This document shows positions 1-63,383 of a DNA stretch of 64,000 nucleotides, piece after piece. The DNA comes from an uncultured Steroidobacteraceae bacterium (lineage in GTDB: Bacteria > Pseudomonadota > Gammaproteobacteria > Steroidobacterales > Steroidobacteraceae). How positions within the stretch are numbered: position 1 is the stretch's first letter; each line of letters starts with the position of its first letter. The position numbers were made by a program, and so were the translations under genes. Location of the stretch: NCBI GenBank assembly GCA_964444835.1, contig CAYUIT010000016.1, positions 481-64,480 on the forward strand, given 5' to 3'. The notes beneath the pieces are model-generated. The model worked only from the letters and a program-made list of their open reading frames with translations, made no database searches and had not been told where the DNA came from.

Positions 1-438
1 CCGCGGCAGTTGCGCCACGCGAAACAACGACAGCGCCATCGGATACACCGAGAACGCGACGACGAACAAGCTCACGCCACCGTACGTGAGCACTGCACAA
101 GCGAGCACCACGGCGCCGACCGCGTGCCGTGCACCGATGCGTTCGACAATCCACTTGGCGACGGCGTCCGCTGCACCACTCGCCTCCATCACCTTCCCAA
201 ACAGCGAGCCGAGCAAGAACATGAAGAACCAGGCTTGCACAAACCCGACGAAGCCTTGCATGTATGCGGCCGTGAAACTCGGCATGCCCTCGGCAGCGAC
301 TTGCGGGAACAACGCGAAGCCGCTCGCGATCCCGACTAACAATGCGCACAACGGGGCCGCAATCAATAACTCGACGCCACGCATGGTGAACCACACGAGC
401 AGCGCAAGTCCTAACAAGAGACCGAATAGGCTGATCAC
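1..438 (-). CDS. GntP-family permease (possible 3-hydroxybutyrate/organic acid transporter). Only the 5' part is present because the gene runs off the left edge.
   Basis: Absent from the ORF track because no stop lies in the window. My own minus-strand translation from GTG at 438 reads VISLFGLLLGLALLVWFTMRGVELLIAAPLCALLVG...FLLGSLFGKVMEASGAADAVAKWIVERIG...LTYGGVSLFVVAF and stays open to position 1. This is a typical GntP N-terminal region. Confidence 0.65.
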   Translation of the reverse strand, partial: MISLFGLLLGLALLVWFTMRGVELLIAAPLCALLVGIASGFALFPQVAAEGMPSFTAAYMQGFVGFVQAWFFMFLLGSLFGKVMEASGAADAVAKWIVERIGARHAVGAVVLACAVLTYGGVSLFVVAFSVYPMALSLFRVAQLPR

Positions 439-441
439 GAT

Positions 442-2364
442 TTACTCCGGAATCACCAAGCGGCGACCGACAACCTCGATACGGGCAGCATCCGGTACCG
501 CTTGAATTCGCGCATGGACCACTTGACTCGGCGGCAACGGCGTTTGGGTACTGAGCTGCGCGTACAGCGCGTCGAGCGCATCGTTCAAGTGCGGCTGCAT
601 CGGCGTGTAGCTGCCGCGCATGCCCGGCCAGGGCAGGAAGGCATCGAAATGCTGGCCGCGCGCGATCTCGTAGTAGCGCACGTTCAAGCCGCGTTGGCGA
701 GCGGCCACATAGTAGGCGCGCGATGCGAAATTGACGGGCACCAACGCGTCTTGGCGTCCGTGTAACACCACAATAGGACGCTGGCCGACTCTCAGGGTGG
801 CGGCCGTTGCACGAATGCCTGGCTGCACTCGTCGCTTGAGCGCCGCAAGACACTGGATCGCCTCCAAGCTGCGCGCCGCTGCGAGCGAGCGCTGCCCGCT
901 CGCGTCAGTACGCACTAACATCACGCCGAGCGCGGGCGGAATGCCGCTCGCATCGCTGAACGCCATACGCAGTTCGGTGTCAGTCAACGCACGTGGCGCG
1001 CCGGATGCATCGACAGCGGCGAGGCCATAGCCGCAGGGCATCGCATCGATGGGCGCGCGTGCATAGGCGCTCGCGTAGGTCGCCGCCACGCTCAGCGCCA
1101 GCTCGAGTTGCACGTTGAGCGCACCCATCCGCAGCGCTTCGCGCTGCACTCCCGCTGCAATCAACGTGTCGCGCGCGCTCGCCGCTCTAGCTTTTACGGT
1201 GTCGCCCGTCACGAGCCCCGCCGCTGCAAGGCTTGCGCACCATTGCTCGTGCTGCGCCCGACCCAACAATGCGACAGCCGCCAACGGTGCCGTACTGTCA
1301 GGCTCGGCCAGAAATGCGCAGCGCTGCAACTGTGCATGCAGCACGGCGTACTCATACAAGGCCAGCGGCTGAATCACGCTCCGTGCACCGCCCTCTTGCA
1401 GCTCGAACGAGCGCAAGCGTGTGCCGACGTAAACGCTGGGCTCTGCAGCGACCGCGCCGTCAAACAAGCGCCCGCCGTCGGCCTCCATCGCGCGCAGCAC
1501 CGCGCCACCCCCATTCGAAATGCCGGCCGCGATGATGAGTGTGTTCGCAGCAGTGAACCCTTCGGGCCGACGCGCCGCGAACTCTTTCCCTAACCACTCG
1601 AGCGCGACACGTGCAGCACTGACGACATATTCACCCCAGAGCGCCTCCGGGTTGTTACCGGAATGAAAATGCTTCCACAGCACCGCGTGCGGCTCACGCT
1701 GACGCAACGCGACGAGCGCGTGTGCGTCGGTCGGCGCAAACGTCAGGTACGGATCCGCGGGATCGTCGGTCAGCGTGCCATCGATTCGGATACCCAGTGA
1801 ACGATCGACGTCATAAAGACCGGTCCCAGTGCCCTTGTCGCTGTGCGCTACAGCGCACCCGCGGCGCAAGCCCCATTCTCCAGCCGTCGGGAGCGCACCG
1901 TAGATGCCGCGCGACCCTGAGGCGGCCACCACAACCAAACAAGGCTGACTCGGATCGAATGCGCGCGGAATCTGCAGCATCACTGTGCTGCTGCCGCGGC
2001 CGCCCGGTCCGCGCACCGGCGCGAGCAACTCCACCCCGGCAATGCGCAGCCCATCGATCGGCCCGTACGTCGTGCCAAACCCGCCCTCCGCCGACACGTC
2101 GATGAGACCGCGGTAATTCTGATAGATCGCACGCCGTCGAATCTCTTGGCGTGTCGGCTTCGCGGGGTCGGCGAATGTCGGCGCGGCGCCGCGCAGCCCT
2201 TCGGCACCGAGCCCCGCCGTCAGTAGATCGTCGCTTTGCCCGTCCACTTCCAAGCGCAGCGGTGGCGCTAACCACTCTGCTTGGGCAAGCGGGACACCTG
2301 TGACGAGGCTCACGAGCAACAGCGCCGTGCAAAACAACATCGATCGCATGCGGGCCGCCATCAT
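442..2364 (-). CDS. D-(-)-3-hydroxybutyrate oligomer hydrolase family protein, secreted
   Basis: 640 aa ORF with an N-terminal signal peptide (LLLVSLVTGVPLAQA). The N-terminal region (DDLLTAGLG..GLRG....FADP..PT..ELRR.AIY.NYRGL.D) is characteristic of the 3HB-oligomer hydrolase family. Neighbours are a 3HB dehydrogenase and a GntP permease. Confidence 0.75.
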   Translation of the reverse strand: MMAARMRSMLFCTALLLVSLVTGVPLAQAEWLAPPLRLEVDGQSDDLLTAGLGAEGLRGAAPTFADPAKPTRQEIRRRAIYQNYRGLIDVSAEGGFGTTYGPIDGLRIAGVELLAPVRGPGGRGSSTVMLQIPRAFDPSQPCLVVVAASGSRGIYGALPTAGEWGLRRGCAVAHSDKGTGTGLYDVDRSLGIRIDGTLTDDPADPYLTFAPTDAHALVALRQREPHAVLWKHFHSGNNPEALWGEYVVSAARVALEWLGKEFAARRPEGFTAANTLIIAAGISNGGGAVLRAMEADGGRLFDGAVAAEPSVYVGTRLRSFELQEGGARSVIQPLALYEYAVLHAQLQRCAFLAEPDSTAPLAAVALLGRAQHEQWCASLAAAGLVTGDTVKARAASARDTLIAAGVQREALRMGALNVQLELALSVAATYASAYARAPIDAMPCGYGLAAVDASGAPRALTDTELRMAFSDASGIPPALGVMLVRTDASGQRSLAAARSLEAIQCLAALKRRVQPGIRATAATLRVGQRPIVVLHGRQDALVPVNFASRAYYVAARQRGLNVRYYEIARGQHFDAFLPWPGMRGSYTPMQPHLNDALDALYAQLSTQTPLPPSQVVHARIQAVPDAARIEVVGRRLVIPE

Positions 2365-2367: not shown

Positions 2368-3258
2368 CTATCTCCCTTGCGCATAGGCTGCCAAGAAACT
2401 CTCGAGCGCCGTGCGCACGATAGTCTCATCCAGCGTCGGTGCGTGACCGCGCCCTTCCACTAACAACACCTGCAAATCCGGCTTCTGCGCTTGCATCTTC
2501 GCAACAGTTGCTGAGCTCAAGATGTCCGACATCGCACCGCGAATGAGCAGGGTGGGCACGCTGCGCAACGCCGCAAACAGCGGCCATAGGTCCGGCGTTG
2601 GGCCTGCCGCCCGTAACGCCTCACCGAGTCTTGGGTCCATGTCGAGCACGGGCTTGCCTTCACCGTCGTCGCGATACGTGGCGCGCACGAAGCGTTGCCA
2701 GTCTGCTACCGTGAAGTCCGGCAAAGCTGCGCCGTGCAGTATTCGCGATTGCTCGATCGCGTCTTCCCAACTCGTCACGGGCGGCAACTGACCGACATAG
2801 CCCGCGATTCGCGTTGCGCCGCGGGGATCGATCTCGGGCCCGACGTCGTTCAACACGCAGCCCGCCAGCAGCGCGGGCTGCAACATCGCCATCAGCATCG
2901 CAATCAAGCCGCCGAGTGACGTGCCGATCACGACGACTTGCGGGACCCGCAAAGCCTCGAGGATGGCGAATACATCGGCCGCATACTGCATCGGTTGGTA
3001 GCGTGCGACTTGCGAATCCCATTCCGAGCGACCACGGCCACGTAAATCCGGCGTCAGTACGCGGTACTGGGCACTCAGCGCGGCGGCAAGCGGCTCGAAG
3101 TCGCGGCTGTTGCGCGTCAACCCGGGCAAACACAAGACCGCGGGACGACCCGCCTGTGCTGCTGCGCGCCGGTAGTCGCGGCAGTACAGCTTGAGGCCGT
3201 CGCGTGCCGGCAGATAGTGCTCGTCAAACGATACGGCTTCAGGCACGTGGGGCTCCAT
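2368..3258 (-). CDS. alpha/beta-fold hydrolase
   Basis: The ORF track gives 2368..3474, but I prefer the internal ATG at 3258 (MEPHVPEAVSFDEHYLPARDG...). It has the nucleophile elbow GTSLGG and a C-terminal GRGHAP motif. The upstream extension overlaps the ligase gene. Confidence 0.75.
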   Translation of the reverse strand: MEPHVPEAVSFDEHYLPARDGLKLYCRDYRRAAAQAGRPAVLCLPGLTRNSRDFEPLAAALSAQYRVLTPDLRGRGRSEWDSQVARYQPMQYAADVFAILEALRVPQVVVIGTSLGGLIAMLMAMLQPALLAGCVLNDVGPEIDPRGATRIAGYVGQLPPVTSWEDAIEQSRILHGAALPDFTVADWQRFVRATYRDDGEGKPVLDMDPRLGEALRAAGPTPDLWPLFAALRSVPTLLIRGAMSDILSSATVAKMQAQKPDLQVLLVEGRGHAPTLDETIVRTALESFLAAYAQGR

Positions 3259-4825
3259 ACACACTGCGCAATTCGCGCTTGAGTATCTTGCCATTGGGAT
3301 TGCGCGGCAGCGCATCGACGAGCACGACGTCGGCGATTCGTTGTTGCCGTCCGACGCGTTCGTTAGTCCAATCCCGTAGCAGGCTGCGGAGAGCATCGAC
3401 TGACTCCAGCGGCGCGCTCCGCGGCACGACGATGGCAAGCGGCGTTTCGCCCCACTTCTCACTCGGTACGCCAATCACGGCGACCTCACTCACCTGCGGA
3501 TGCTGCAGCAGCACCGTCTCAATATCGGCGGGATAGATGTTCTGGCCGCCCGAGATGATCATGTCCTTCTTGCGATCGACCAGATACAAGAAACCATCTG
3601 CGTCGACACGCCCGACATCGCCCGTGCGCAACCAACGTCGTCCCGCAGTATCGACCCAGGTGGCCTCGGCATTCGCATCGTCGCGATGCAGATAGCCAGC
3701 CATGACGATGCGGCCACGGCTCACGATCTCGCCCGCGACACCTGGCGGCACTTCGCAATTGGATTCGTCGAGGATCTTGATATCGGTGCCCGGCAGCGGT
3801 CGCCCGACGGACGCGATCTTGTCGAACGCATCCTCTGGCGCGAGCGTTGTGATGACTCCCTCCGTTAGGCCATACAACTCGATAAACTGACAACCCAGTT
3901 CGCCCAATGCACGACGTTTCAGTGCTTCCGGCATCGGTGAGCCGCAGCACATGAGGCTTTGCAACGAGCGCAAGTCGTGCCGCGCGAAATCCGGATGCTC
4001 GAGCAAGCGTTGGTATTGCAGTGGCACCATTGAGCCGTGCGTGACGCGCTCGCGCTCGATCGTGGCCAACGTGCGTGCCGCGTCGAAACCCGCTTCGATC
4101 ACCAGCGTGCCGCCCACCAAGATCGTCGACAACATGCTGGCCCAGCTGATATTCGAATACAGCCCGAGGTTGCACAATGTGACCGCACCGCTGTGGTAGC
4201 GCAGCGCAAGCGCGATGTCGCTGGCCCAATCGAGTCGGCGGCGGTGCGTGTGCACGATGCCTTTCGGCAAGCCCGTGGTGCCGGAGCTGTAAATGATGTT
4301 GCAAGGTGCGTCTGGATCGATGCTCGTTAGCGGCGTCGCATCGCCGACCGCTGCCTGCAACCAATCGCTGAACACTTGCCACGGCGGCGCGCCCGCAATC
4401 GGCGGACCCACAGGCTCGACTGCGATCCACTGCCGGACGCCGTGGGCACCGCGGCCGTTCAGCGTAAAGCGCGCGCAATGCTCGTGCGAAGCGATGACCA
4501 CGGTCGCCGCACAATCCTCCAGCATCGCACCCATCGCCGCATCGCTGACCGACACGTTCAACGGCACAACGACGCAACCAGCACGCATCGCGCCAAACAT
4601 GGCGACCGCCATCTCGATGCCGTTACGCATCACGACGAGCACGGCATCGCCCGAGTGTGCGCCTGAGGCACGCAGCGCCCGCGCAACGCGCTCGCACTCG
4701 CTCGCGAACTGCCGCCAGCTCAGGCGTTGCTCGTCGCACACGAGCGCTGCCCGTGAGCCACGCCAGCGCCCCTGCAGATCGATCAGCTCTGGCAGCAGCA
4801 GCGGCGGCGCGTCGAACCAAGCCAT
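3239..4825 (-). CDS. AMP-forming acyl-CoA synthetase/ligase
   Basis: 528 aa with the AMP-binding signature YSSGTTGLPKG, TGDVG..D.DGFLY.VDRKKDMIISGG.NIYP and a C-terminal PRNP.GKILKRELR motif. Confidence 0.85.
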   Translation of the reverse strand: MAWFDAPPLLLPELIDLQGRWRGSRAALVCDEQRLSWRQFASECERVARALRASGAHSGDAVLVVMRNGIEMAVAMFGAMRAGCVVVPLNVSVSDAAMGAMLEDCAATVVIASHEHCARFTLNGRGAHGVRQWIAVEPVGPPIAGAPPWQVFSDWLQAAVGDATPLTSIDPDAPCNIIYSSGTTGLPKGIVHTHRRRLDWASDIALALRYHSGAVTLCNLGLYSNISWASMLSTILVGGTLVIEAGFDAARTLATIERERVTHGSMVPLQYQRLLEHPDFARHDLRSLQSLMCCGSPMPEALKRRALGELGCQFIELYGLTEGVITTLAPEDAFDKIASVGRPLPGTDIKILDESNCEVPPGVAGEIVSRGRIVMAGYLHRDDANAEATWVDTAGRRWLRTGDVGRVDADGFLYLVDRKKDMIISGGQNIYPADIETVLLQHPQVSEVAVIGVPSEKWGETPLAIVVPRSAPLESVDALRSLLRDWTNERVGRQQRIADVVLVDALPRNPNGKILKRELRSVYGAPRA

Positions 4826-4855
4826 TGCACGCGCCTCAGCGAGTTGTTAGTCGGG

Positions 4856-7126
4856 TTAGAACTTGTAGGCGAGCGTCGCCGTGATCGTCCGCGGGTTACC
4901 GTAGAACGCCAGCACCGAGTTGTCCGTGGCTGCGCCCGGGAAGTTGTAGCCCGAGGTGATATAGCGCTCGTCGCCCAAGTTGCGGCCTTGGATACCGAGA
5001 CGCCAGTGGTCATCGTCCGACGTCCAGTTGATCGCCGCATCCACGAGCCAATACGCCTCTTGATCGAGCAGCGGAATGGCAAATTCGAACTGCTGCGTGA
5101 AGCCGCGATAGGCGCCCGAGCCCGTGAAGGACACCGCACCACCTTTGCCGAACAACGAGAGCGGCACGCTGTAGGTGAGGCTCAAGTTACCCGTCCAATC
5201 CGGCGTGTTCTGCACATCGCGCTGCGACGACACGTCCACGTTATTCAAAATGAACTCGGTGTATTCCGCGTCGATGTAGCCGACCGAGAGTGCGCCCGAA
5301 AAGCGGTCCGTGAACCGCATCGTGCTCTCGAACTCGATGCCCTTGATCTCCGCAGCACCGGCGTTCGTCAACGTGCCAACGAAGGAAACCGGCGGTCCGG
5401 GAATGATCACCGATCCTGGAATTTGCACGTCTTCGTAGTCGGCGAAGAACACCGCCGTGTTCATCGTGGCGCGGCCATCAAACAACGTCGACTTCGCGCC
5501 GAGTTCATAAGAATTGACGAACTCGGGCAGGAACCCGGCGCGTACATCGGCGTTGGCGAAGTTACCGCGCGGATCGAAGCCGCCGCCCTTGAAGCCCTCA
5601 GAGTACGACGCGTAGAGATTCAGCGTTTCGAAGGGTTGCCACGCCGCAATGAAGCGCGGCGTAAAGTCGGTGTCGGTCCGCTCACCGAGGAACTGTGGCA
5701 CCACTTGCTGGCCGCTAACGACCACGGGCACGGTGATGCTCACGGCGGCGGGGTTGCCAAACAACGGTGAATTCACGCCGAGGAATGTCTGCCGAACGAT
5801 TCGCGAGCGTCGCTCGTCATCGGTGTAACGGCCGCCGAAGGTCAGGCTCACCGTGTCCGTAACATCCCAGGTCGCCTCACCGAACAGCGCCCATGTCTTC
5901 GTATCGACATCACCGACCGTTAGCTGCGTGACTGAGGTGAAGACGACGTCGAACTGGTTGTAGGCATTGGCGTCGAGGTAGTAAGCACCGCCGACCACCG
6001 TAAGCCGCTCGCCGGAGTACACGAGCTGGAACTCTTGGCTGAACTGCTCGTTCGTGTAGATGACCGGCGCGTCGAACGTGCGCGGCCCCGTGGAATCGAA
6101 GTCGATCGGCGAGTCCGAATCGTCCTCGCGATACGCCGTGATGGAACGGAATAGCCACTGGTCGTTCACAGTCCAGTCGAAGCGCAGTTGACCGCCAAAT
6201 GAATCGACCTTGTTGCGACGAATCGGGCCGAGATTGGTGATGCCGGCCGTCGTGTTGAAGTCGTCACCCAGCAATTGCTGCTGGGCGGTCGATACGGTGG
6301 GCAGCAAACGATAGCCGTGGCGCGGCGACGAATCGTCGGTGGTGTTATCCGCCGAGAAGGCAATGCGCAGCGCATCCGTCGGCTCGAACTCGAGCGACAC
6401 GCGTGCTGCGAGCACGTCCTTGTCGTAGTTCTCCTCGCCGGTGGTGAGGTTGGTGCCGAAGCCGTCGCGCTGTAGCAGTGCAATCGCACCGCCGAAACGG
6501 AAGCGATCGTTCACGGGTGTCGACGCACTGAACACCGCATCGCGCTGCCGGTAGCTACCGACTGACAACCGCGCATTGAGCGTCGGCTCGTTCGGATTGA
6601 TCCGCCGTGTGACGTACTTGACGGCACCACCGATCGTGTTGCGCCCATACAGCGTGCCCTGCGGTCCGCGCAAGATCTCGATGCGCTCGACGTCGTACAC
6701 ATCGAGCACGGCACCTTGCGGACGATTGAGATACACATCGTCGAGATAGATGCCCACACCTTGCTCGAAGCCTGCCACGGGATCTTGCTGACCGACGCCG
6801 CGGATGAAGGCCGTGAGTGTCGAATTCGTGGCGCGCGACGTTTCGAATGTGACGTTCGGCGTGGATTGCGTGATCGCCGTAATGTCTTGCGCGCCGATGC
6901 TCTCGAGCTCTGCACCCGAGATTGAAGTGACTGCAATGGGGACTTCTTGCAAGGATTCTTCGCGGCGGCGCGCGGTCACCGTGATCTCTTCGAGACCGGC
7001 GTCAGCGCCCTCCGCTGCGGGATCCTGCGCGTGCGCGGGCTGCAGACCGGCAGCGAGCAACAGCGCCGTGGCGGCCACTGCGCCTCCGAGTGTTTGAAGC
7101 GGCAACAGGCGAGCGCGAGACGTCAT
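4856..7126 (-). CDS. TonB-dependent receptor
   Basis: 756 aa with a signal peptide, a plug domain (ITVTARRREESLQEVPIAVT...IEILRGPQGTLYGRNTIGGAV) and a C-terminal aromatic residue (..TLAYKF). Confidence 0.9.
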   Translation of the reverse strand: MTSRARLLPLQTLGGAVAATALLLAAGLQPAHAQDPAAEGADAGLEEITVTARRREESLQEVPIAVTSISGAELESIGAQDITAITQSTPNVTFETSRATNSTLTAFIRGVGQQDPVAGFEQGVGIYLDDVYLNRPQGAVLDVYDVERIEILRGPQGTLYGRNTIGGAVKYVTRRINPNEPTLNARLSVGSYRQRDAVFSASTPVNDRFRFGGAIALLQRDGFGTNLTTGEENYDKDVLAARVSLEFEPTDALRIAFSADNTTDDSSPRHGYRLLPTVSTAQQQLLGDDFNTTAGITNLGPIRRNKVDSFGGQLRFDWTVNDQWLFRSITAYREDDSDSPIDFDSTGPRTFDAPVIYTNEQFSQEFQLVYSGERLTVVGGAYYLDANAYNQFDVVFTSVTQLTVGDVDTKTWALFGEATWDVTDTVSLTFGGRYTDDERRSRIVRQTFLGVNSPLFGNPAAVSITVPVVVSGQQVVPQFLGERTDTDFTPRFIAAWQPFETLNLYASYSEGFKGGGFDPRGNFANADVRAGFLPEFVNSYELGAKSTLFDGRATMNTAVFFADYEDVQIPGSVIIPGPPVSFVGTLTNAGAAEIKGIEFESTMRFTDRFSGALSVGYIDAEYTEFILNNVDVSSQRDVQNTPDWTGNLSLTYSVPLSLFGKGGAVSFTGSGAYRGFTQQFEFAIPLLDQEAYWLVDAAINWTSDDDHWRLGIQGRNLGDERYITSGYNFPGAATDNSVLAFYGNPRTITATLAYKF

Positions 7127-8014: not shown

Positions 8015-8775
8015 ACGCGCGCATCGCATTAGTGACGGGCGCCGGCAGCGGCATCGGTCGTGGATTGGCACAACAACTGGGCGCCGCAGGCTTCACCATC
8101 GCCGTCACGGATCTTGACGGCACGGCAGCAACTGCCACCGCCGATTCAATCCGCGCGCGCGGCGGACAGGCCACGTCTCACGCCATGGACGTCACCGATG
8201 AGACCAGCATTGCGCGCGCAGTCGGCGAGTTGCCGCGAGCTGTTAGCCTGCTCGTCAACAACGCCGGGTTCCAACACGTCGCGCCGCTCGAGAGCTTTGG
8301 CATGGAGCGTTTCGCCCGCATGATCGATGTCATGCTAACCGGCGCGGCGCGCTGCTGTGCGGCGGTGTTGCCAGGGATGCGCGCAACCGGCTTCGGCCGC
8401 ATCGTCACGATTGGCTCGATTCATTCGCTCGTCGCTTCGCCCTATAAGAGCGCGTACGTCGCCGCGAAGCACGGCCTTGTCGGTTTCACACGCACGCTCG
8501 CGCTCGAAACAGCGGATACGGATATCACGGTCAACCTCGTGTGCCCGGCCTATGTCCGCACGCCGCTCGTCGATGCCCAAGTGGCTGCGCAGGCGGCCAC
8601 TCGCGGCATCGCGCCGGAGGCGGTCATCGACGACATCATGCTGCGGCCCATGCCAAAGCACCGCTTCGTGGAGATCGACGAAATCGCCGCTACCATCGCA
8701 TTCCTCGCCAGCGACGCCGCGCGTAACATCACGGGTCAGGCCATTGCGATCGACGGCGGATGGACGGCGCAGTAA
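8011..8775 (+). CDS. bdhA: 3-hydroxybutyrate dehydrogenase-like short-chain dehydrogenase
   Basis: Starts MNARIALVTGAGSGIGRG. NNAGFQHVAPLE, KSAYVAAKHGLVGFTR and a C-terminal IDGGWTAQ closely follow the BdhA pattern. The ATG at 8011 overlaps the TetR stop. Confidence 0.8.
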   Translation: MNARIALVTGAGSGIGRGLAQQLGAAGFTIAVTDLDGTAATATADSIRARGGQATSHAMDVTDETSIARAVGELPRAVSLLVNNAGFQHVAPLESFGMERFARMIDVMLTGAARCCAAVLPGMRATGFGRIVTIGSIHSLVASPYKSAYVAAKHGLVGFTRTLALETADTDITVNLVCPAYVRTPLVDAQVAAQAATRGIAPEAVIDDIMLRPMPKHRFVEIDEIAATIAFLASDAARNITGQAIAIDGGWTAQ

Positions 8776-9938
8776 CTCCTCATGCTCTGATCGTCGGCGC
8801 CGGCATCGGCGGTTTAGCGGCAGCGCTCGCCCTGCAGCGTGCAGGCCAGCGCGTCACGGTGCTCGAATCTGCGGCCGAGCTCGGCGACGTGGGCGCCGGC
8901 TTGTCGATTACGCCGAACGCGAGCCTCGCATTGGCTGCGCTCGGACTCGCGCCCGCTCTCGAGAATATTGGCAGTATCCCGCGCGCTGGCGCCGTGCGGC
9001 ACTACCAGTCGGGTGCCACGCTCGTAGCACTGCACCAAGACGCCAGTCGTGAGCGCTATGGCGCACCCCTCTATCACGTGCATCGTGCCGATCTGCATCG
9101 CGTACTCGCGGACGCCGTGCGAGAACGCGACGCCCATTGCATTCGCACTAACAGCACGGTGGTCGCTTACGACGCGACCGCGGACCAGGTGAGCGTCACG
9201 CTAGCGGACGGCTCACACGTGCGCGGCGACTGGTTAGTAGGCTGTGATGGCATTCGCTCAACGATTCGCACGCGCATGCGGGGACCGGAACGCGCTCACT
9301 TCACAGGCTTCGTCGCTTGGCGCGGCGTCGTGGATACGGTGCGAATTGCAGAATCGCTCTGCGATCCGCCGTTATGCATGACGGTTGGACCGCGGCGGCT
9401 CGTCATGCGCTACCTCCTGCGCCGCGGAACGCAGCTGAACATCGTCGCGGTGGCTCGACGTGATGCTTGGACCGAAGAGGGCTGGTCGGTCGCGGCGGAG
9501 CGCGACGAATTGCTCACCGAATTCGCCGACTTTGAGCCGCATACGCGCGACCTATTGGCCGCGATCCCTGCCGAGCGCTGTTTCAAATGGGGCTTGTTTG
9601 ATCGCGACCCGCTACCCGTTTGGAGCATGCACCTGTGTACCTTGTTAGGCGATGCAGCACATCCCATGCCACCGTTCACAGGGCAAGGCGCGGTGATGGC
9701 GCTCGAAGATGCCGTGGTGCTTGGGCGCGCCGCCGCAGCCAGCCCTCATCCATCCGAGGCGTGTCGCCGCTACGAAGCCGCGCGTCGCCCGCGTGTCGAT
9801 GCGGTCCTGGCAATGTCGCGCGCGCGGGCGAATTTGTACTTTGCCGACGACCCTGCCGCGCAAGTTCAAGCGCTCGGTCAGGGCATGGCGGAATTACGGA
9901 CGCTGTACACCTACAACGCCGGCACGGTCGCGATTTGA
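8760..9938 (+). CDS. FAD-dependent aromatic-ring monooxygenase (salicylate/3-hydroxybenzoate hydroxylase-like)
   Basis: 392 aa with the FAD motif IVGAGIGGLAAALAL, then DG.RS..R and the C-terminal motif LLGDAAHPMPPFTGQGAVMALEDA. Confidence 0.8.
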   Translation: MDGAVTPHALIVGAGIGGLAAALALQRAGQRVTVLESAAELGDVGAGLSITPNASLALAALGLAPALENIGSIPRAGAVRHYQSGATLVALHQDASRERYGAPLYHVHRADLHRVLADAVRERDAHCIRTNSTVVAYDATADQVSVTLADGSHVRGDWLVGCDGIRSTIRTRMRGPERAHFTGFVAWRGVVDTVRIAESLCDPPLCMTVGPRRLVMRYLLRRGTQLNIVAVARRDAWTEEGWSVAAERDELLTEFADFEPHTRDLLAAIPAERCFKWGLFDRDPLPVWSMHLCTLLGDAAHPMPPFTGQGAVMALEDAVVLGRAAAASPHPSEACRRYEAARRPRVDAVLAMSRARANLYFADDPAAQVQALGQGMAELRTLYTYNAGTVAI

Positions 9939-9942: not shown

Positions 9943-10845
9943 CTAACTGGCGAGCCGTGCACGCTCTGCCAACACGAGTGCGCCCATCGCGCCGGCCGAG
10001 TCCTTCAGCCCCGGCGCAACAATGAAGTCATCGAACGACTCGCTCAAGCGCGGGTGATGCAGATAGCCCGCGAGCTGATCGCGCGCCGCGGAACGTACCA
10101 ACGGATACACCGTGCCGTCGGTCGTGAGGCCGCCCCCTAACACGATGACGCTCGGCGAAATCATCAAAGCGATCGCCGCGCACAACTGCCCCAGATAGAA
10201 GCCAATGACCTCGCGCGCAGGGTGATCTGGCGGCAACTGATCCAGGCGCTGGCCCCAGCGGGCTACGACAGCCGGACCGCTAACAAGTCCTTCGAGGCAG
10301 TCTCCGTGGAACGGGCAAACGCCGCGGAAATCTTGGTCGTAGGGATGGCGCGGTACGCGCAGATGTCCCATCTCGGGATGGATCAAGCCGGGCACGGCGT
10401 GCCCGTCCACGGCGATGCCGCCGCCGATGCCCGTGCCGGCCGTCACGTAGACCACAGTGCGATGGCCTGCACCGGCGCCCCAACGAGCTTCGGCGACAGC
10501 CGCACCATTGACGTCTGTATCGATCGCCACGGGTCGCTGAAAGGCCGCCTGCAACGGCTGCGTGAGGCTCACGCCGCTCCACTGCGGCTTGGGCGTGCGG
10601 GTGATCGCACCGAAAGTCGACGAACGCGGATCGAGATCGAGCGGCCCGAAGGATGCGATGCCAAACGCCGCGAGCGGCCCCTGGCGTGCATCGACAGCGC
10701 GAAAGAAATCGACCACGTCGGCGAGCGTCGCTTCTGGCGCGCGGGTGTCGAAACGCGCGCGCTCGACGATCTCGCCATCGGCACGACCGACGACACACAC
10801 GAACTTCGTGCCGCCCGCTTCAATTCCTCCTAACAAATGCTGCAT
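9943..10845 (-). CDS. ROK-family sugar kinase (fructokinase/glucokinase-like)
   Basis: 300 aa starting MQHLLGGIEAGGTKFVC, with DTDVNGAA and the ROK zinc motif (CPFHGDCLEG). Confidence 0.75.
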   Translation of the reverse strand: MQHLLGGIEAGGTKFVCVVGRADGEIVERARFDTRAPEATLADVVDFFRAVDARQGPLAAFGIASFGPLDLDPRSSTFGAITRTPKPQWSGVSLTQPLQAAFQRPVAIDTDVNGAAVAEARWGAGAGHRTVVYVTAGTGIGGGIAVDGHAVPGLIHPEMGHLRVPRHPYDQDFRGVCPFHGDCLEGLVSGPAVVARWGQRLDQLPPDHPAREVIGFYLGQLCAAIALMISPSVIVLGGGLTTDGTVYPLVRSAARDQLAGYLHHPRLSESFDDFIVAPGLKDSAGAMGALVLAERARLAS

Positions 10846-13694: not shown

Positions 13695-13778
13695 GATGTT
13701 TCCCCTCGTTGTGGACGGCGAACCACAGTGCGTCATTGCCTGCGGAACTCTCGACCTCGGGTTGAGGCTACTATGGTC

Positions 13779-13814
13779 TGCAATCGATTGCAATTGCAGC
13801 GACAAACGATTGCA
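13779..13814. promoter_or_regulatory. LacI-type operator, type A: a perfect palindrome TGCAATCGATTGCA plus a weaker adjacent copy
   Basis: TGCAATCGATTGCA at 13779-13792 is a perfect 14-bp palindrome, about 85 nt upstream of the receptor start. A second copy, GACAAACGATTGCA, lies at 13801-13814. Confidence 0.5.
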
Positions 13815-13877
13815 GGCATAGCCACCTGTGTCGCGGCGCCGCCACAATCGAGGCGGTGTTGGGGCGGTCTGCGCGGG

Positions 13878-49257: not shown

Positions 49258-49323
49258 CGCATTTCTTTCGGCCCCATGCGAGACTTGCCGCAGACTCACT
49301 GGGATCGCAAGGAGACAAATCAG

Positions 49324-52697: not shown

Positions 52698-52866
52698 GCG
52701 AACTCCCTTGCAAACCCACCAGGTGAAGCAACGAGTATAGCCGTCGACTGAGGCCACGCGATCGCACCGTGGTAACAGAAGGCGCCTGACCTGGGCTCTT
52801 TCCACGCGCTCATAGTTTCAATCGGATCGGGAGGCGCTATAGTGTGTATAGGGGTTCAAGTTCGTC

Positions 52867-53763
52867 ATGACTGCGCGCGATTTCCAAAAGTATTATCAAG
52901 CGCCGCTGCCTGCGCTGCTGGCGTTCATCACCGTTTTCGCGTGGCAAGCCATCGGGCACTTCTTGATGCACCAGATGGAGTACGCGTGGTTTCACGATCA
53001 CGTGTTCTTAGCCGCGTTCGTGATCGGCGCCGTCGGCGTGTGGGCCATTTGGTACGGCCGCGATAAATCTGAGAATGCAGCGACGCTACTGGGTTTCGTG
53101 GGTGGCAATCTGATTTGGTTGTCGTGGATCGAATTCAGCTTTGTCTACGTGGCCGAAGACCTCGGCGTACAGTCGGTCTTGTGGGGCGCCAAAGATACGA
53201 AGGCCGAGTATCGCGTGATGTTGTCGTCGATCGGCGTACTGTTCGCGACGTTGGTGTTTTTCTTCTTCAATCGCGACACGCGTTGCAATGCGTTCATGTG
53301 GCTGCATCGTAAACTGCGTCTCGACCCCGGTGAAAAGACCACCGCACAACACCGCAATGTCTGCTCGATCGTCGCGATGGAGACCATCTACGTCACGTGG
53401 TTCTTCTACATCGTGCTGTTGACGCTGTACAACCCGGCATTCTTCGGCACCGATCACTGGGTCACGTTTGCGGCCTGCGGGTTCTTCTTCGTCTGGGCGA
53501 TCTATTTGCTGCAGCGCTTATGGTGGTTCCAGCGGATGGCGCCGGCCCTGCGCTACGCCATTCCCACGGGCATCATTCTGTGGAACGTGGTCGAGATCTT
53601 GGAGAAGTGGGGCCACATCGACGAGATCTGGGTACAACCGCAGAAGTACGCGTTCGAAATTAGCGTGACAGTCGCGGCGTTCGTACTAACGATCATTTTG
53701 GCAGTTGTTAGCCCTGCGCGCCGAATCGTGCGGCAGCAAAGCGCCGAGGGCTCGGCGCGTTGA
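52867..53763 (+). CDS. Hypothetical integral membrane protein
   Basis: 298 aa with several hydrophobic segments rich in Trp/Phe/Tyr. I recognise no family. Its stop overlaps the next gene's start. Confidence 0.55.
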   Translation: MTARDFQKYYQAPLPALLAFITVFAWQAIGHFLMHQMEYAWFHDHVFLAAFVIGAVGVWAIWYGRDKSENAATLLGFVGGNLIWLSWIEFSFVYVAEDLGVQSVLWGAKDTKAEYRVMLSSIGVLFATLVFFFFNRDTRCNAFMWLHRKLRLDPGEKTTAQHRNVCSIVAMETIYVTWFFYIVLLTLYNPAFFGTDHWVTFAACGFFFVWAIYLLQRLWWFQRMAPALRYAIPTGIILWNVVEILEKWGHIDEIWVQPQKYAFEISVTVAAFVLTIILAVVSPARRIVRQQSAEGSAR

Positions 53764-56770: not shown

Positions 56771-57331
56771 ATGCGAGTCCTGTTCGTCCCTATTCTGAGC
56801 TTGCTCTGGAGCACACCGCTTGCCGCTGCTTGCTCCGATATCGTCCATCGCGCGTTCGATTTCTGGGCAGGCGAGTGGCTCGTCCGCTCAGGTGCCAAGA
56901 TCGTGGGCGAAAACACCGTGACGGCCGTCGCCGAGGGCTGCGCGCTTCGCGAGGAGTGGCGCGGCCGTGACGGCTCGACGGGCACTAGCCTCACGTTCTA
57001 CGACACGGCACGCACACAGTGGCATCAGACCTGGATCGGTGGCGATGGCGGCGCGCTCTATTTGGATGGTGTGTTTCGCGACGCAACTTTGCAACTCGAG
57101 GGCACTCGCATACTCCGCGATGGGCGACGCGCTACCGAGCGCATCGAATGGACTCCGCTGCAGGACGGCAAGGTTCGGCAGCGCTGGGATCGCCGTATCG
57201 AGGGTGAGTCCGAGTGGCAAGTCGTCTTCGACGGCATCTACGAACGGGTGTCGCGCGCCCACAAGCTATCGAGCGACCAGCGGCCTCCGCCAAACACCGC
57301 GATCGTCACCAACATGAGCCCCCAAAAGTAG
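56771..57331 (+). CDS. Small secreted protein, DUF1579-like
   Basis: Starts MRVLFVPILSLLWSTPLAAA, a signal peptide. The pattern FDFWAGEWLV....G..T......GCALREEW.G..G..G.SLTFYD.....WHQTWI follows. The 3' tail overlaps the DoxX gene convergently. Confidence 0.6.
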   Translation: MRVLFVPILSLLWSTPLAAACSDIVHRAFDFWAGEWLVRSGAKIVGENTVTAVAEGCALREEWRGRDGSTGTSLTFYDTARTQWHQTWIGGDGGALYLDGVFRDATLQLEGTRILRDGRRATERIEWTPLQDGKVRQRWDRRIEGESEWQVVFDGIYERVSRAHKLSSDQRPPPNTAIVTNMSPQK

Positions 57332-57702
57332 TGTTGGCCAAGTGCGGCCTCAAAGCCCTCGGTCAGCAGCACGTGCGCGTACGACACCACCGCAAGTACG
57401 TTGACGGCTAACAACCCGAGTGCGGCATAGCGCGTGCAAAGGCCCATCACCAACAGCGCGGGAAACACCAGCTCACCCGCGGTGCCTGCCACAGCCGCCA
57501 ATGCAGGCGACAGGACCGGCACACGATACTCCTCTTCGAACAGCCACACGGTGCCCGGCCAATCGCTGAACTTCAGCCAACCCGACTTCAAGAACTGCCA
57601 CGATACATACACTCGCAAGCCCAACAGCAAAAGCGATTGCAGCGGTTGCGTGAGAGTGGCGGCGACGGCGTTCACGCGCGGCACGAAAGCAAGTACAGAC
57701 AT
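57238..57702 (-). CDS. bufD: DoxX-family membrane protein, last gene of the bufferin-type operon
   Basis: From the ATG at 57702: MSVLAFVPRV...LLLLGLRVYVSWQFLKSGWLKF...FPALLVMGLCTRYAALGLLAVN. This is a typical DoxX protein. Confidence 0.8.
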   Translation of the reverse strand: MSVLAFVPRVNAVAATLTQPLQSLLLLGLRVYVSWQFLKSGWLKFSDWPGTVWLFEEEYRVPVLSPALAAVAGTAGELVFPALLVMGLCTRYAALGLLAVNVLAVVSYAHVLLTEGFEAALGQHYFWGLMLVTIAVFGGGRWSLDSLWARDTRS

Positions 57703-57767
57703 GGCGGCTCCGGTCGTAAAGAGTGTGTGGTGAGGCTCGGAACGAGCACCACAGACGACCGGCGTTA

Positions 57768-58529
57768 TCAGCCAATTATTGCAGCAACGCAGCCATCGCC
57801 AAACAGACGCGCGAGCGCTTGCTGCAGCGCTTCGATCGCTAGCGCAGACTGTTCGAGCGCTTCCTCGAGAGACTGTCCGTCGTGCAAGGCGCGCACGAAT
57901 CGGCATTCCTCAGCGCTGACGCGCCGCAGCTCCACGTCATCGCTCGCAGCGCGATGCACGACCACGCACTCGCCTCCCAGCGCCAGGTCGATCGGTACAC
58001 TGGACGCTTGATCGCGATTCGCACGCCACACTGCGAGCACCGGCACGCTCGCTTCAATCACCGCGAGCGATGGAATGAGTTGCAATCGCACGGCACCGAG
58101 ACTATCGGGTGCGACGTTGCGGAGCGCGTCCACGCCGATCCGCTCGCTTTCGGGCGCCACCGCAGCAGCCGCCACAGCCCACTCGAGCTGCGCAAGCTCG
58201 GTGAGCCAGGCGTACGGCGTGTCGGCCAAATGTTGTGCGAGAAAGCGCGGGAAATGCGCACCGACCCAATGTAAGTCGCCGCGCGCTGAAGGATGCGCGT
58301 CGCGGTACTGCGCACTGAGTTGCTTGAAGTAATCGGTGCCGACCCGACGCTCGATCACAGGATACGTGCTACGCAACGCCGCATCGAAGAAGCTGCGCGA
58401 GTTGTGTCGGTACACGGCCAAGCGAGCCGCTGCGGGTATCGCCGCGTCGACGACAAAGCTCGTCGGTGCATCGGCCGCCGTAAGCAAATGCGCCGCAAAC
58501 GCGGACTGGATCTCACGCAGCGTCGGCAT
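57768..58529 (-). CDS. bufC: DUF2063 protein (partner of the DUF692 enzyme)
   Basis: 253 aa starting MPTLREIQSAFAAHLL. Its start overlaps the stop of the upstream DUF692 gene by 17 nt. Confidence 0.8.
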   Translation of the reverse strand: MPTLREIQSAFAAHLLTAADAPTSFVVDAAIPAAARLAVYRHNSRSFFDAALRSTYPVIERRVGTDYFKQLSAQYRDAHPSARGDLHWVGAHFPRFLAQHLADTPYAWLTELAQLEWAVAAAAVAPESERIGVDALRNVAPDSLGAVRLQLIPSLAVIEASVPVLAVWRANRDQASSVPIDLALGGECVVVHRAASDDVELRRVSAEECRFVRALHDGQSLEEALEQSALAIEALQQALARLFGDGCVAAIIG

Positions 58530-59373
58530 GAGTCCTCGCCAGAAACTGATCTGCCGTGCGCGCCTCAGCGAGGAGCACTTCGAGCGCAGGCAACTCCGTA
58601 TCCCACTCGATCAGTGTGGGACGCGGCCCGACGCGGACGAGCGCGTACTGAAACAATTCCCATACCGGCGATGCCACTGTCGACCCGTGATCGTCGATCA
58701 GCAGCGTGTGCTCACCTACCACTTTGCGCGTATGGCCGGCGAGGTGGTATTGACTCACCGCGTGCGCCGGGAGTGCGTCGAGCACGGCGCGCGGATCGCT
58801 CCCGAGATTGTGCGCATTGACGAATAAGTTATTGATATCTACTAACAACTCACACTGCGCTTCCTGCACGATCGCAGCGAGGTACTCGCCCTCGGTCAAG
58901 CTCGAGTGTGCGAATGCCACATACTGCGAGACGTTCTCGAGCAACAGGCGGCGCCCGAGTGCGTCTTGCACTTGGCGAATGCGGCTCGCCAGATGGTGGA
59001 CGGCCTCTTCGGTGTACGGCAACGGCAGCAGATCGTTGAAATGCGCGCCGTCGATCGCGCCCCAACAGGCATGCTCGGACACGAGCGCTGGCTCGAAGCG
59101 CCGCACGGCCGCCACCACCTGCGCGAGGTGATTTGCGTCGAGCGCATCGACGCCCCCCAGCGCCAAACCCACGCCGTGCAAGCTGATGGGATAGCGTTCG
59201 CGGAGTCGATCAAGCTCGCGCGGTGCATAGCCGCCCGCGTGAAAATAGTTCTCGGTGTGAACTTCGAGAAACGCAATGTCCGGTCGCGACTCCGCGAACT
59301 GCACAGCATGTGCTGCGCGGTAACCGATCCCGGCTCGCGCGGGAATCGTGCGGTTGCCAACGAATCCGGACAT
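58513..59373 (-). CDS. bufB: DUF692 / MNIO (multinuclear non-heme iron oxidative) enzyme
   Basis: 286 aa. GIGYR..H, FLEVHTENYF, ISLHGVGLALGG, VSEHACW, NDLLPLPYTEEAV, LLLENVSQYV, LLVDINNLFVNAHN, HLAGH, IDDHGS.V and PTLIEWDTELP are the canonical DUF692 blocks. Confidence 0.9.
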   Translation of the reverse strand: MSGFVGNRTIPARAGIGYRAAHAVQFAESRPDIAFLEVHTENYFHAGGYAPRELDRLRERYPISLHGVGLALGGVDALDANHLAQVVAAVRRFEPALVSEHACWGAIDGAHFNDLLPLPYTEEAVHHLASRIRQVQDALGRRLLLENVSQYVAFAHSSLTEGEYLAAIVQEAQCELLVDINNLFVNAHNLGSDPRAVLDALPAHAVSQYHLAGHTRKVVGEHTLLIDDHGSTVASPVWELFQYALVRVGPRPTLIEWDTELPALEVLLAEARTADQFLARTHADAA

Positions 59374-60688: not shown

Positions 60689-61375
60689 TTGCTCGAGCCG
60701 GCCGAGTGGCAAGCACTGCGAACGAGTCTGACGGTCGCGACCTTGGCGGTGGTGGTCGCCCTGCCGCTGGCCGTCGCGACTGCGTGGCTGCTCGCACGAA
60801 AGCAGTTCCCCGGCAAGCTGCTGCTCGACGGGCTCGTGCACGCGCCGTTGGTGTTGCCACCCGTGGTGGTGGGCTACCTACTCCTGCTCACATTCGGTGT
60901 GCAAGGTCCGATCGGTGCATGGCTTGAGAGCACGTTCGACATCCGGCTCGTGTTCACGACGACAGGCGCCGCAATGGCTGCGGGCACCATGGCATTTCCG
61001 ATGATGGTTCGCGCGGTGCGCTTGTCCATCGAGGCGATCGACCCAGGTTTGGAGGTTGCCGCCCGCTCGCTCGGCGCACACCGCTGGGATCGCTTGCGCA
61101 CGATCACACTGCCGCTCGCATTGCCAGGGATCGTCGCCGCTGCGATCGTGGGCTTCGCCGCAGCGCTCGGTGAATTCGGCGCCGTGATCACTTTCGCGGC
61201 GAATGTTCCCGGCGAAACGCAAACGCTGCCACTCGCCATCTACAGCGCCTTGCAGACCCCAGGCGGCGAGACCACCGCACTCAAGTTGGCGCTCGTCTCA
61301 CTCAGCATCGCTCTGATTGCACTCGTCCTGGCAGAGTGGTTAGGCCGGCGAGCCCGCACGCTCGCATCGCGCTGA
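60689..61375 (+). CDS. modB: Molybdate ABC transporter permease
   Basis: TTG start at 60689 preceded by AGGGAG. The sequence ..LLEPAEWQALRTSLTVATLAVVVALPLAVATAWLLAR..FPGK and the EAA loop EVAARSLGAHRWDRLRTITLPLALPG are typical of ModB. Confidence 0.8.
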   Translation: MLEPAEWQALRTSLTVATLAVVVALPLAVATAWLLARKQFPGKLLLDGLVHAPLVLPPVVVGYLLLLTFGVQGPIGAWLESTFDIRLVFTTTGAAMAAGTMAFPMMVRAVRLSIEAIDPGLEVAARSLGAHRWDRLRTITLPLALPGIVAAAIVGFAAALGEFGAVITFAANVPGETQTLPLAIYSALQTPGGETTALKLALVSLSIALIALVLAEWLGRRARTLASR

Positions 61376-62495: not shown

Positions 62496-62621
62496 GGTCA
62501 GCCGCTTGTCAGTCGCGACCCGCCCCGGCATCATGGGCCGGCGCTGCGTGCCCCGGTCTCCACCAATATAACGGCACGCGCCACGACCCTCGATAACGTC
62601 ATCATCAGGTAGGCAAACAAG

Positions 62622-63383
62622 ATGCTGGAACTCCTCTCGAGCCCTGAGGCATGGATCGCTTTTGCGACGTTGACCGCGCTTGAGCTCGTGCTCGGCATCG
62701 ACAACATCATCTTCATCTCGATCTTGGTGGACAAGCTGCCCGAAGCGCAGCGCAACCTGGCACGACGCATCGGCCTATTCATGGCCATGTTCATGCGCGT
62801 GGCATTGTTGTTAGTGCTGTCGTGGATCATAGGCCTCGTCAAGCCGATGTTCGTGATCTTTGGGCAAGAGATTTCGGGGCGCGATCTGATCTTGATCCTG
62901 GGTGGTCTGTTCCTCGTGTGGAAGAGCACGAACGAAATCCACGGCTCACTCGAAGGCGAAGAAGGTGATAAGTCCTCGGCGGTCAGAGCGACCTTCGCCA
63001 GCGTGATCATGCAGATCATGATCATCGACTTGGTGTTCTCGCTCGATTCGATCATCACGGCGGTCGGCATGGTCGACGACGTGCGCATCATGATCGCGGC
63101 CGTCCTCGTGTCCGTCGCATTGATGATGGTGTTTGCGCGCCCAATCGGCGAATTCGTATCGCGCCATCCCTCAATCAAGATGTTGGCGCTGTCATTCCTC
63201 GTGGTCGTAGGCGTCGTGCTGATCGCCGAAGGCTTCGACCACAAAGTGCCGAAGGGCTACGTGTACTTCGCGATGGCCTTCTCGCTCGGTGTCGAGATGC
63301 TCAACATCCGCATGCGCAAGCGGTCCAAGAAGGTCGTCGCACTGCACAGCCACTACGAGCCGGAGCGCCCACCAGCGAAGTAA
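62622..63383 (+). CDS. TerC-family integral membrane protein
   Basis: 253 aa. ALELVLGIDNIIFISILV and DLVFSLDSIITAVGM are the duplicated TerC motifs. Confidence 0.85.
   Translation: MLELLSSPEAWIAFATLTALELVLGIDNIIFISILVDKLPEAQRNLARRIGLFMAMFMRVALLLVLSWIIGLVKPMFVIFGQEISGRDLILILGGLFLVWKSTNEIHGSLEGEEGDKSSAVRATFASVIMQIMIIDLVFSLDSIITAVGMVDDVRIMIAAVLVSVALMMVFARPIGEFVSRHPSIKMLALSFLVVVGVVLIAEGFDHKVPKGYVYFAMAFSLGVEMLNIRMRKRSKKVVALHSHYEPERPPAK

Follow-up and report, generated by a model that had tools for sequence, protein, structure and literature searches.

Genome-wide hyper-abundant words are rare, and those that are understood, namely the uptake signal sequences (USS; AAGTGCGGT, ACAAGCGGT) of Pasteurellaceae, the DNA uptake sequences (DUS; GCCGTCTGAA dialects) of Neisseriaceae, the recombination hotspot Chi (GCTGGTGG in E. 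coli, other 5-8-mers) and the FtsK orienting polar sequences (KOPS), have each exposed a basic DNA transaction; the highly iterated palindrome HIP1 (GCGATCGC) of cyanobacteria is unexplained after decades. Here we describe the heptamer TTGTTAG (CTAACAA on the opposite strand) in a 64,000-nucleotide stretch of DNA from an uncultured Steroidobacteraceae bacterium (contig CAYUIT010000016.1, positions 481 to 64,480; hereafter the window), and argue that it is almost certainly a real, lineage-wide signal that acts at the level of DNA and is under drive or selection. Among the systems to which it can be compared, the placement of USS and DUS comes at the expense of the proteome, with frames that use preferred codons being favoured (PMC2817400), and terminators harbour about half of the known DNA-uptake-enhancing sequences, with inverted pairs a common arrangement (bioRxiv 10.1101/2025.10.24.684340). 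HIP1, whose function is unresolved (PMC5861425), is palindromic, rich in G+C and associated with orphan methyltransferases (PMC4390886).

Abundance and coding contexts of TTGTTAG

An exact count gave 43 copies in the window (G+C 62.4%), 17 as TTGTTAG and 26 as CTAACAA on the + strand, the outermost at 336 and at 62808-62814, which amounts to one copy per 1.5 kb or 6.7 per 10 kb. Base composition predicts 2.9 copies on both strands and an order-3 Markov model 3.6, under which TTGTTAG is the most over-represented 7-mer of the window (z ~19). Shuffling of synonymous codons within genes left 2.46 ± 1.51 copies (maximum of 9 in 1000 shuffles) as opposed to 41 in coding sequences (CDSs), and permutation of whole codons left 1.65 ± 1.30. 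The excess over the composition, Markov and synonymous-shuffle expectations is 12- to 17-fold. Gene calls were approximate (longest open reading frames, ORFs, with high G+C at third minus second codon positions), and the crude gene caller dropped ORF 57238-57906 with its copy at 57408, leaving 41 CDS copies in the shuffle tests and 42 overall. Variants at the last position were scarce on both strands (TTGTTAC 5, TTGTTAT 2, TTGTTAA 1). An earlier note on this DNA had arrived at the same 43 copies (26 and 17) with the same end coordinates, had expected 1-3 copies from independent bases, in keeping with the 2.9 obtained here, and had named a codon-aware ratio of 1-2 or an irreproducible count as reasons to abandon the signal; the ratio found is about 17. 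Its G+C of about two-thirds was slightly too high, and while last-base variants are rare as it had claimed, its figures for TTGTTAC, TTGTTAT and TTGTTAA (about 6, 3 and 0) have to be corrected.

All but one of the 43 copies lie within CDSs, where they occupy four strand and frame contexts, with 22 copies as TTG-TTA-Gnn (site 57408 included), 6 as nTT-GTT-AGn, 10 as nCT-AAC-AAn and 4 as CTA-ACA-Ann, precisely the breakdown reported earlier. In each of the two unused frames, TAG or TAA would be read as a codon. The peptides encoded in the four contexts are unrelated (LL, VS/VR, NN/NK and LT), and the 14 template-strand copies alone are about 10 times expectation. The word does impose the rare Leu codons, as had been proposed: among 2062 Leu codons only 83 (4%) are TTA and 78 are CTA, and 21 of the former and 4 of the latter fall within TTGTTAG. 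Leu-Leu-Gnn is spelled TTG-TTA at 21 of 100 sites, where codon usage predicts about one. Expressed as occupancy of amino-acid-compatible sites, the word fills 21% of LL[ADEGV], 9% of [FILV]V[RS] and 12% of LT[IKMNRST] sites, and 83% of [APST]N[NK] sites, at which one synonymous change is enough: such tripeptides are spelled nCT-AAC-AAn in 10 of 12 cases in the window and with TTGTTAG in 21 of 27 when L081-L083, three relatives introduced below, are included. TTGTTAG visibly shapes the encoded protein sequence. In relatives without the word, several of the Asn residues concerned have Asp, Gly or His as their counterparts.

Among the Leu-Leu copies, those on the - strand and on the coding strand of - strand ORFs lie at 336-342 and 411-417 in ORF 1-438 (TTG-TTA-GTC, LLV; TTG-TTA-GGA, LLG), 2460-2466 in ORF 2368-3474 (TTG-TTA-GTG, LLV), 10830-10836 in ORF 9943-10845 (TTG-TTA-GGA, LLG), 14231-14237 and 14933-14939 in ORF 13878-15065 (TTG-TTA-GTG, LLV; TTG-TTA-GGA, LLG), 18481-18487 and 19624-19630 in ORF 18041-21181 (both TTG-TTA-GCG, LLA), 25867-25873 in ORF 25613-26626 (TTG-TTA-GCG, LLA), 30888-30894 in ORF 29347-32781 (TTG-TTA-GCC, LLA) and 57408-57414 in ORF 57238-57906 (TTG-TTA-GCC, LLA); those at 42994-43000 in ORF 42712-43341 (TTG-TTA-GCC, LLA) and 62808-62814 in ORF 62622-63383 (TTG-TTA-GTG, LLV) are on the + strand, again the coding one. 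The nTT-GTT-AGn frame is represented on the - coding strand at 10280-10286 in ORF 9943-10845 (CTT-GTT-AGC, LVS), 19524-19530 in ORF 18041-21181 (GTT-GTT-AGC, VVS), 24030-24036 in ORF 22883-24157 (GTT-GTT-AGG, VVR) and 29831-29837 in ORF 29347-32781 (GTT-GTT-AGG, VVR). On template strands, the word stands at 11974-11980 and 12244-12250 (both +) in ORF 11178-13847(-), reading GCT-AAC-AAC (ANN) each time, at 28555-28561 (-) in ORF 27972-29315(+) as TCT-AAC-AAC (SNN), and as CTA-ACA-ACT (LTT) at 25275-25281 (+) in ORF 24154-25584(-) and CTA-ACA-AGC (LTS) at 37684-37690 (+) in ORF 37493-38650(-). The sole clearly intergenic copy, at 4844-4850 (+), is located in the 30 nt that separate ORFs 3239-4825(-) and 4856-7126(-). 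The remaining copies are given with their orthologs below.

Spacing of the copies is Poisson-like, with a coefficient of variation of 0.94 and a largest gap of 6.8 kb (30.9-37.7 kb) that is unexceptional (p=0.31); positions within genes are uniform, with neither clustering nor runs of one orientation, and chance could account for the genes devoid of copies once the number of amino-acid-compatible sites in them is considered. Islands behind the copy-free gaps were considered and rejected, as the gaps fit both the Poisson spacing and the number of such sites. The host genes are ordinary ones, serving housekeeping and the use of carbohydrates, and encode TonB-dependent receptors, GH94, GH1 and glucoamylase enzymes, an ABC sugar transporter, LacI regulators, an M14 peptidase, a GGDEF-EAL protein and the zwf-edd-eda products. 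The window was also scanned for Rfam families and tRNAs, without a match. Exact look-ups of the TonB receptor ORF, of the 910-aa M14 ORF and of P0126, a protein of a 72-kb NCBI contig that is identical to part of a window ORF, likewise returned no record.

Relatives, orthologous sites and the recognised word

Contigs of relatives were chosen from the graded series of homologs of the M14 peptidase ORF, and comprise four inner (L081-L083, L169) and three outer relatives (L084, L086, L171). Ranked by identity of the M14 protein, the word attains 8.4 copies per 10 kb in L081 (86%), 7.7 in L082 (76%), 3.7 in L169 (71%), 6.6 in L083 (69%), 2.8 in L086 (67%), 2.8 in L171 (65%) and 2.6 in L084 (63%). 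It is the top or near-top 7-mer in these independent metagenome or metagenome-assembled genome (MAG) contigs, and the top one in the pooled inner (51 vs 5.1 expected) as well as the pooled outer relatives (16 vs 1.7). By comparison, 160 unrelated loci (2.6 Mb), taken as controls from unrelated taxa with homologs of Edd (59-65% identical) and GH94 (41-54%) among the matches listed, carry 0.17 to 0.33 copies per 10 kb, and chance occurrences raise the figure to 2 to 3.6 per 10 kb in their low-GC contigs only. The nearest named relatives of the M14 series are 'Steroidobacteraceae bacterium' MAGs, and a search with Zwf returned no cultured, named close relative. Since diverged relatives assembled independently (JGI, ENA, NCBI and Logan) carry TTGTTAG, an artefact is excluded, and with it the artificial watermark that the earlier note had listed as an alternative.

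In codon alignments of orthologs, with the expected conservation taken from control 7-mers in the same frames, 13 of 16 window sites are kept in L081 (third-position identity 0.54; expected 3.8; p=1.8e-6), 6 of 9 in L082 (0.50; expected 1.3; p=5.5e-4) and 6 of 13 in L083 (0.48; expected 1.7; p=3.3e-3). There is no excess in L086 (0 of 12 at an identity of 0.45; expected 1.3) or L084 (1 of 12 at 0.42; expected 1.1). TTGTTAG is therefore retained at orthologous sites in L081-L083 at distances that leave third codon positions almost saturated. At 44357-44363 (-; coding strand of ORF 43332-44621(-)), for instance, the word is constant in the window and all three of these relatives while the next codon reads GGC, GGC, GGT and GGG in the four genomes. 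Likewise kept in L081-L083 are the copies at 47353-47359 (-; coding strand of ORF 46673-48502(-), TTG-TTA-GTG), where the outer relatives spell ELLVR with CTG-TTG (L086) or TTG-CTC (L084), at 48830-48836 (-; coding strand of ORF 48583-49299(-), GTT-GTT-AGT, VVS), and, in the M14 peptidase ORF 49965-52805(-), at 50159-50165 (-; coding strand, TTG-TTA-GCA) and 52390-52396 (+; template strand, CCT-AAC-AAC, PNN). The copy at 45959-45965 (+; template strand of ORF 45487-46596(-), GCT-AAC-AAG, ANK) is kept in L081 and L084. Those kept in L081 are at 40128-40134 (+; coding strand of the zwf ORF 39375-40868(+), TTG-TTA-GCA), 40507-40513 (-; template strand of zwf, CCT-AAC-AAG, PNK), 58842-58848 (-; coding strand of ORF 58513-59373(-), TTG-TTA-GTA) and 45391-45397 (+; template strand of ORF 44630-45469(-), CTA-ACA-ACT, LTT), the last with other residues in L083, L086 and L084; the copy at 17540-17546 (-; coding strand of ORF 16770-17927(-), TTG-TTA-GGA) is kept in L083.

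Gains are both synonymous and replacing. In the M14 ORF, the copy at 51035-51041 (-; coding strand, TTG-TTA-GTG) is common to L081 only, and RLLVA, spelled with TTG-TTA here, is spelled with CTC-TTG, CTG-CTC, TTG-CTC or CTA-CTG elsewhere. Compared with relatives, replacements accompany the word at 51442-51448 (D to N; + strand, template strand of the M14 ORF, GCT-AAC-AAG, ANK, with D in all five relatives), 46559-46565 (G to N; +, template strand of ORF 45487-46596(-), GCT-AAC-AAA, ANK, where L086 and L084 have AGK), 15799-15805 (H to N; +, template strand of ORF 15168-16706(-), CCT-AAC-AAC, PNN, PHN in L083), 9642-9648 (A to L; +, coding strand of ORF 8760-9938(+), TTG-TTA-GGC, LLG, where L084 and L086 have TLAGD) and 48180-48186 (R to K; +, template strand of ORF 46673-48502(-), ACT-AAC-AAG, TNK, NR in L083, L086 and L084). 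At 16256-16262 (-; coding strand of ORF 15168-16706(-), TTG-TTA-GCG, LLA) L083 has CTC-CTC-ACG, at 42034-42040 (-; template strand of the edd ORF 40753-42696(+), CTA-ACA-ACT, LTT) L081 has CTC-ACA-GCG, and the copy at 53705-53711 (+; coding strand of ORF 52867-53763(+), GTT-GTT-AGC, VVS) is specific to the window. On our reading of the ortholog alignments, the encoded tripeptide differs at about two-thirds of those window sites for which relatives allow polarisation. The window itself had already suggested that the target of drive or selection is the DNA word, and not a peptide or codon; this view is strengthened by the roughly 17-fold failure of a codon-aware null, the presence of the word on both strands and in all stop-free frames, its recurrence in eight related contigs that were assembled independently, its conservation in orthologs above background and these two kinds of gain.

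The heptamer appears to be the core of a slightly longer site. Pooling of the window and the seven relatives (110 copies) revealed G (63) or C (30) at position -1 in 93 copies and T in 5, A at -2 in 43, and A at +1 in only 2, and these preferences are seen in each frame and strand context. The sequence outside -3 to +1 is unrelated among copies, with no conserved flank or second element. Other bases are tolerated at core position 2: the window has 9 copies of TGGTTAG (2.3 expected), which lie on coding and template strands alike and in 7 cases follow AG, and GTCGTTAG is enriched in relatives (17 vs 2.1 and 8 vs 0.9 expected). With AG before them, the TGGTTAG copies at 1590-1596 (-; TGG-TTA-GGG, WLG), 2268-2274 (-; WLA), 23653-23659 (-; WLA) and 61337-61343 (+; WLG) read GAGTGGTTAG and that at 21606-21612 (-; WLG) reads AAGTGGTTAG, while those at 20709-20715 (+) and 43324-43330 (-) are on the template strands of ORFs 18041-21181(-) and 42712-43341(+), respectively; the other two are at 24768-24774 (-; WLD) and 9231-9237 (+). 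The latter site reads TGG-TTA-GTA where the orthologs of two outer relatives (L084, L086) have TGG-TTG-TTA-GG, and thus the canonical word, which suggests interconversion between variants. In light of the flank preferences and the tolerant second position, the recognised word is about 9-10 bp, roughly A-[G/C]-T-[T>C,G]-G-T-T-A-G-[not A], with TTGTTAG as the invariant core. A strong core with weaker edges is a pattern typical of sites at which a protein recognises DNA.

Candidate explanations

The explanation that we favour, tentatively, is that TTGTTAG could be a DNA-uptake-enhancing sequence maintained by biased uptake and recombination, in line with the resemblance to uptake sequences pointed out in the earlier note. 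In this scheme, a protein of a gammaproteobacterial lineage near Steroidobacteraceae would read the core on double-stranded DNA, and the competence machinery would have a preference, in both binding and import, for fragments that bear it. Homologous recombination of the imported conspecific DNA would then constitute a molecular drive that spreads word-bearing alleles and restores mutated copies, and the word would build up at every site where the protein permits it. The density, the absence of polarity and the use of all stop-free frames would fit such a signal, as would the cost to the proteome, the conservation among related species and the family-level distribution with variants. Even more tentatively, TTGTTAG might represent a third, independently evolved sequence of this kind, and would then be the first from a group other than the host-associated Neisseriaceae and Pasteurellaceae. 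Its carrier would be an environmental, GC-rich lineage, and its A+T-rich core, almost exclusively intragenic location and lack of terminator pairs would be unusual for the kind.

Several points weigh against uptake. (i) Under a pure drive, copies should be densest in the DNA with the least constraint, and unlike USS and DUS, TTGTTAG is near-absent from intergenic DNA and terminators (1 of 43 copies in the window, which is not in a hairpin, and 4 of 110 in the pooled set) and forms no inverted pairs; the nearest neighbours, at distances of 75 and 100 bp, are in direct orientation. (ii) The dominant frame uses the rare codon TTA, whereas known uptake sequences favour preferred-codon frames. (iii) The core is short: unlike USS and DUS it spans 7 bp and is A+T-rich in a 62% G+C genome, and low-GC foreign DNA carries it by chance, so that discrimination of self would be weak unless the flanks matter. 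(iv) Conservation in orthologs and the cost to proteins are equally predicted by selection for an intracellular binding site. (v) Gene tables of the window and the fetched flanks contain no competence or minor-pilin (ComP-type) gene, the literature searched held nothing relevant on competence in Steroidobacter, and a 2025 survey gives uptake sequences only for Neisseriaceae and Pasteurellaceae. (vi) Some 190 kb of the lineage were covered, and most relatives lie in the region syntenic with 40-64 kb of the window. The same literature searches found neither a report of uptake sequences in the Steroidobacter group nor a description of TTGTTAG/CTAACAA as a genomic signal.

A somewhat doubtful alternative, almost as probable as uptake and akin to the nucleoid-protein site listed in the earlier note, likens the word to HIP1, as a site bound by some abundant intracellular protein (for example, one that associates with the nucleoid or organises the chromosome) with no role in uptake or, in another form, as an orientation-independent marker of self for a repair or defence system, kept by natural selection on chromosome function. 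Over-representation together with conservation in orthologs is the evidence from which Xu et al. (PMC5861425) inferred selection on HIP1; the even spread over gene bodies, with no enrichment between genes or in terminators, suits a chromosome-wide site better than neutral uptake drive, and the flank preferences and tolerant second position resemble a protein recognition site. No candidate protein is known, however, the known sites of nucleoid proteins are degenerate and not 12-fold enriched as exact words, and the selection coefficient per site would need to exceed the cost of rare codons and amino-acid replacements, and to do so at hundreds to thousands of sites.

It is improbable that, along the lines of the gene-conversion or repair target named in the earlier note, the word is functionless and reflects neutral, word-directed mismatch correction or short-patch conversion (compare Vsr and CCWGG), in which near-cognates are converted to TTGTTAG and mutations away from it are repaired. 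Such a bias would be indifferent to frame and strand, would create and protect copies in a manner that mimics the conservation in orthologs, and could, by gain or loss of one enzyme, give rise to the density gradient in the clade. Against this, gains often need 2-3 simultaneous differences from the ortholog (CTG-CTC to TTG-TTA, for example), the seven core and three flank positions would all need protection, known short-patch systems produce only a few-fold excess on palindromic methylation sites, and a loading of intergenic DNA at least equal to that of genes is predicted but not seen.

A Chi-like hotspot or a polar motif akin to KOPS and the architecture imparting sequences (AIMS), read directionally by RecBCD/AddAB or FtsK, is very improbable. 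The length of 7 nt and the density of 1 per 1.5 kb are within the known Chi range, and TTGTTAG is G+T-rich, as is the leading strand. Yet when the leading strand was inferred from GC skew (negative on the window + strand throughout, for which reason the - strand was taken as leading), the copies of the eight loci were divided 60 to 50 between leading and lagging strand, in a pool that includes orthologous copies and is not fully independent, and the ratio of coding- to template-strand copies was the same in leading-strand (46:25, 65%) and lagging-strand genes (16:9, 64%). The orientation of TTGTTAG thus follows coding opportunity, Leu-Leu being common, and not replication, and the polar segregation or recombination site entertained in the earlier note is not supported. 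The leading-strand skew expected of such a motif is displayed by GGCGTGA(G) instead.

This second word came to light in the same DNA. The 9-mer (T)GGCGTGAG is over-represented in the window (10 vs ~1 expected), with examples on the - strand at 71, 8177, 18048, 18596, 19421, 44867, 61528, 62310 and 62409 and on the + strand at 29935, and its distribution between the strands is strongly skewed, GGCGTGAG occurring once on the + and 12 times on the - strand, and GGCGTGA 4 and 18 times. The skewed copies are on the G-rich presumed leading strand, some of them antisense in + strand genes, and leading-to-lagging counts of GGCGTGA in relatives are 11:2 (L081), 5:1 (L083) and 7:2 (L086). GGCGTGA(G) is a better candidate than TTGTTAG for the Chi- or KOPS-type polar motif of the lineage.

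A peptide or translation effect (a Leu-Leu motif, a codon pair or TTA-dependent regulation), a mobile repeat, an artefact or a watermark can be dismissed as next to impossible, for although half of the copies are coding-strand TTG-TTA (Leu-Leu), the word stands in four frame and strand contexts with unrelated peptides, a synonymous shuffle gives 2.5 copies, the flanks are unrelated and independent assemblies of relatives share it. Other candidates were tried and rejected as well: dispersed repeats (repetitive extragenic palindromes or bacterial interspersed mosaic elements, miniature inverted-repeat transposable elements, Correia-like elements), given the unrelated flanks beyond -3 to +1 and 42 of 43 copies in CDSs; a promoter -35 element or bipartite site, in that no position beyond -3 to +1 is conserved; a signal in RNA or the non-template strand (small RNA target, pause, ops-like), in that template-strand copies are about 10-fold enriched too; and an integron attC core (GTTRRRY), as cassette-type inverted repeats are missing and the copies are intragenic.

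Other features of the window and comparison with known systems

Some neighbouring features deserve mention in their own right. Zwf homologs of the zwf-edd-eda operon (39375-43341) are 80-93% identical in the inner clade only, the next best being at most 63%, unlike other window genes, which fall off gradually in identity across the same relatives; the operon may have a history different from the rest of the window. The palindrome AAACGTTT has 5 sites (26689, 27925, 38584, 38605 and 48439; ~0.3 expected), several of them at the 5' ends or upstream of genes for LacI-family regulators and sugar transport (ORFs 25613-26626, 26746-28098 and 37493-38650), and these are probably LacI/GalR-type operators. 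CTCGAG (the XhoI site) is moderately over-represented, counting both strands, in the inner (182 vs 122 expected) and outer relatives (148 vs 87), and TAGCGCA/TGCGCTA is enriched in the outer ones (25 vs 6.4). Finally, the gene table of L088, which is the same organism (99.97% identity), places a BufA1 / MbnB-TglH-ChrH / HvfC / DoxX cluster at about 56.7-60.6 kb, that is a bufferin-type locus resembling those for ribosomally synthesized and post-translationally modified peptides, which adjoins an SDR gene and a molybdate-type ABC transporter and bears no relation to TTGTTAG.

TTGTTAG provides a clean new example of a hyper-abundant word in a lineage without a described counterpart, with a 12- to 17-fold excess, near-saturation of the cheapest coding sites and amino-acid replacements that make room for the word. 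As relatives range from high through low to zero density, the responsible protein can be sought directly by phylogenetic profiling. Were it an uptake sequence, sequence-selective transformation would reach environmental (soil or sediment) bacteria with a new kind of DNA receptor, and such signals would not need to be tied to terminators; otherwise, it would pose a second puzzle of the HIP1 type, one whose asymmetric word lends itself more easily to dissection. Either way, it is a compact taxonomic marker for binning of the lineage and calls for caution in analyses of codon usage and selection on its genes.

Akin to USS and DUS, TTGTTAG occurs about once per 1-1.5 kb, in both orientations and without replication polarity, is mostly or often intragenic, uses all stop-free frames and alters tripeptide content; it is kept at orthologous sites between related species and is a family-level trait with variants and a strong core flanked by weaker positions. 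Unlike the hosts of USS and DUS, its host is an uncultured environmental lineage. With HIP1 it shares hyper-abundance as a short word within and between genes, retention at orthologous positions beyond background, and the lack of a peptide, RNA or gene-regulatory explanation. Its 12-fold enrichment corresponds to the lower end of what HIP1 shows (15- to 300-fold), and as opposed to the HIP1 palindrome it is asymmetric, non-palindromic and A+T-rich; no methyltransferase genes were found in the window. Chi, KOPS and AIMS are likewise short exact words of comparable density in core genes, but they are strongly co-oriented with replication, as GGCGTGA(G) is in this same DNA and TTGTTAG is not. TTGTTAG is, in sum, a hyper-abundant genome-wide oligonucleotide signal that is distinct from the Chi/KOPS, HIP1 and USS/DUS families.

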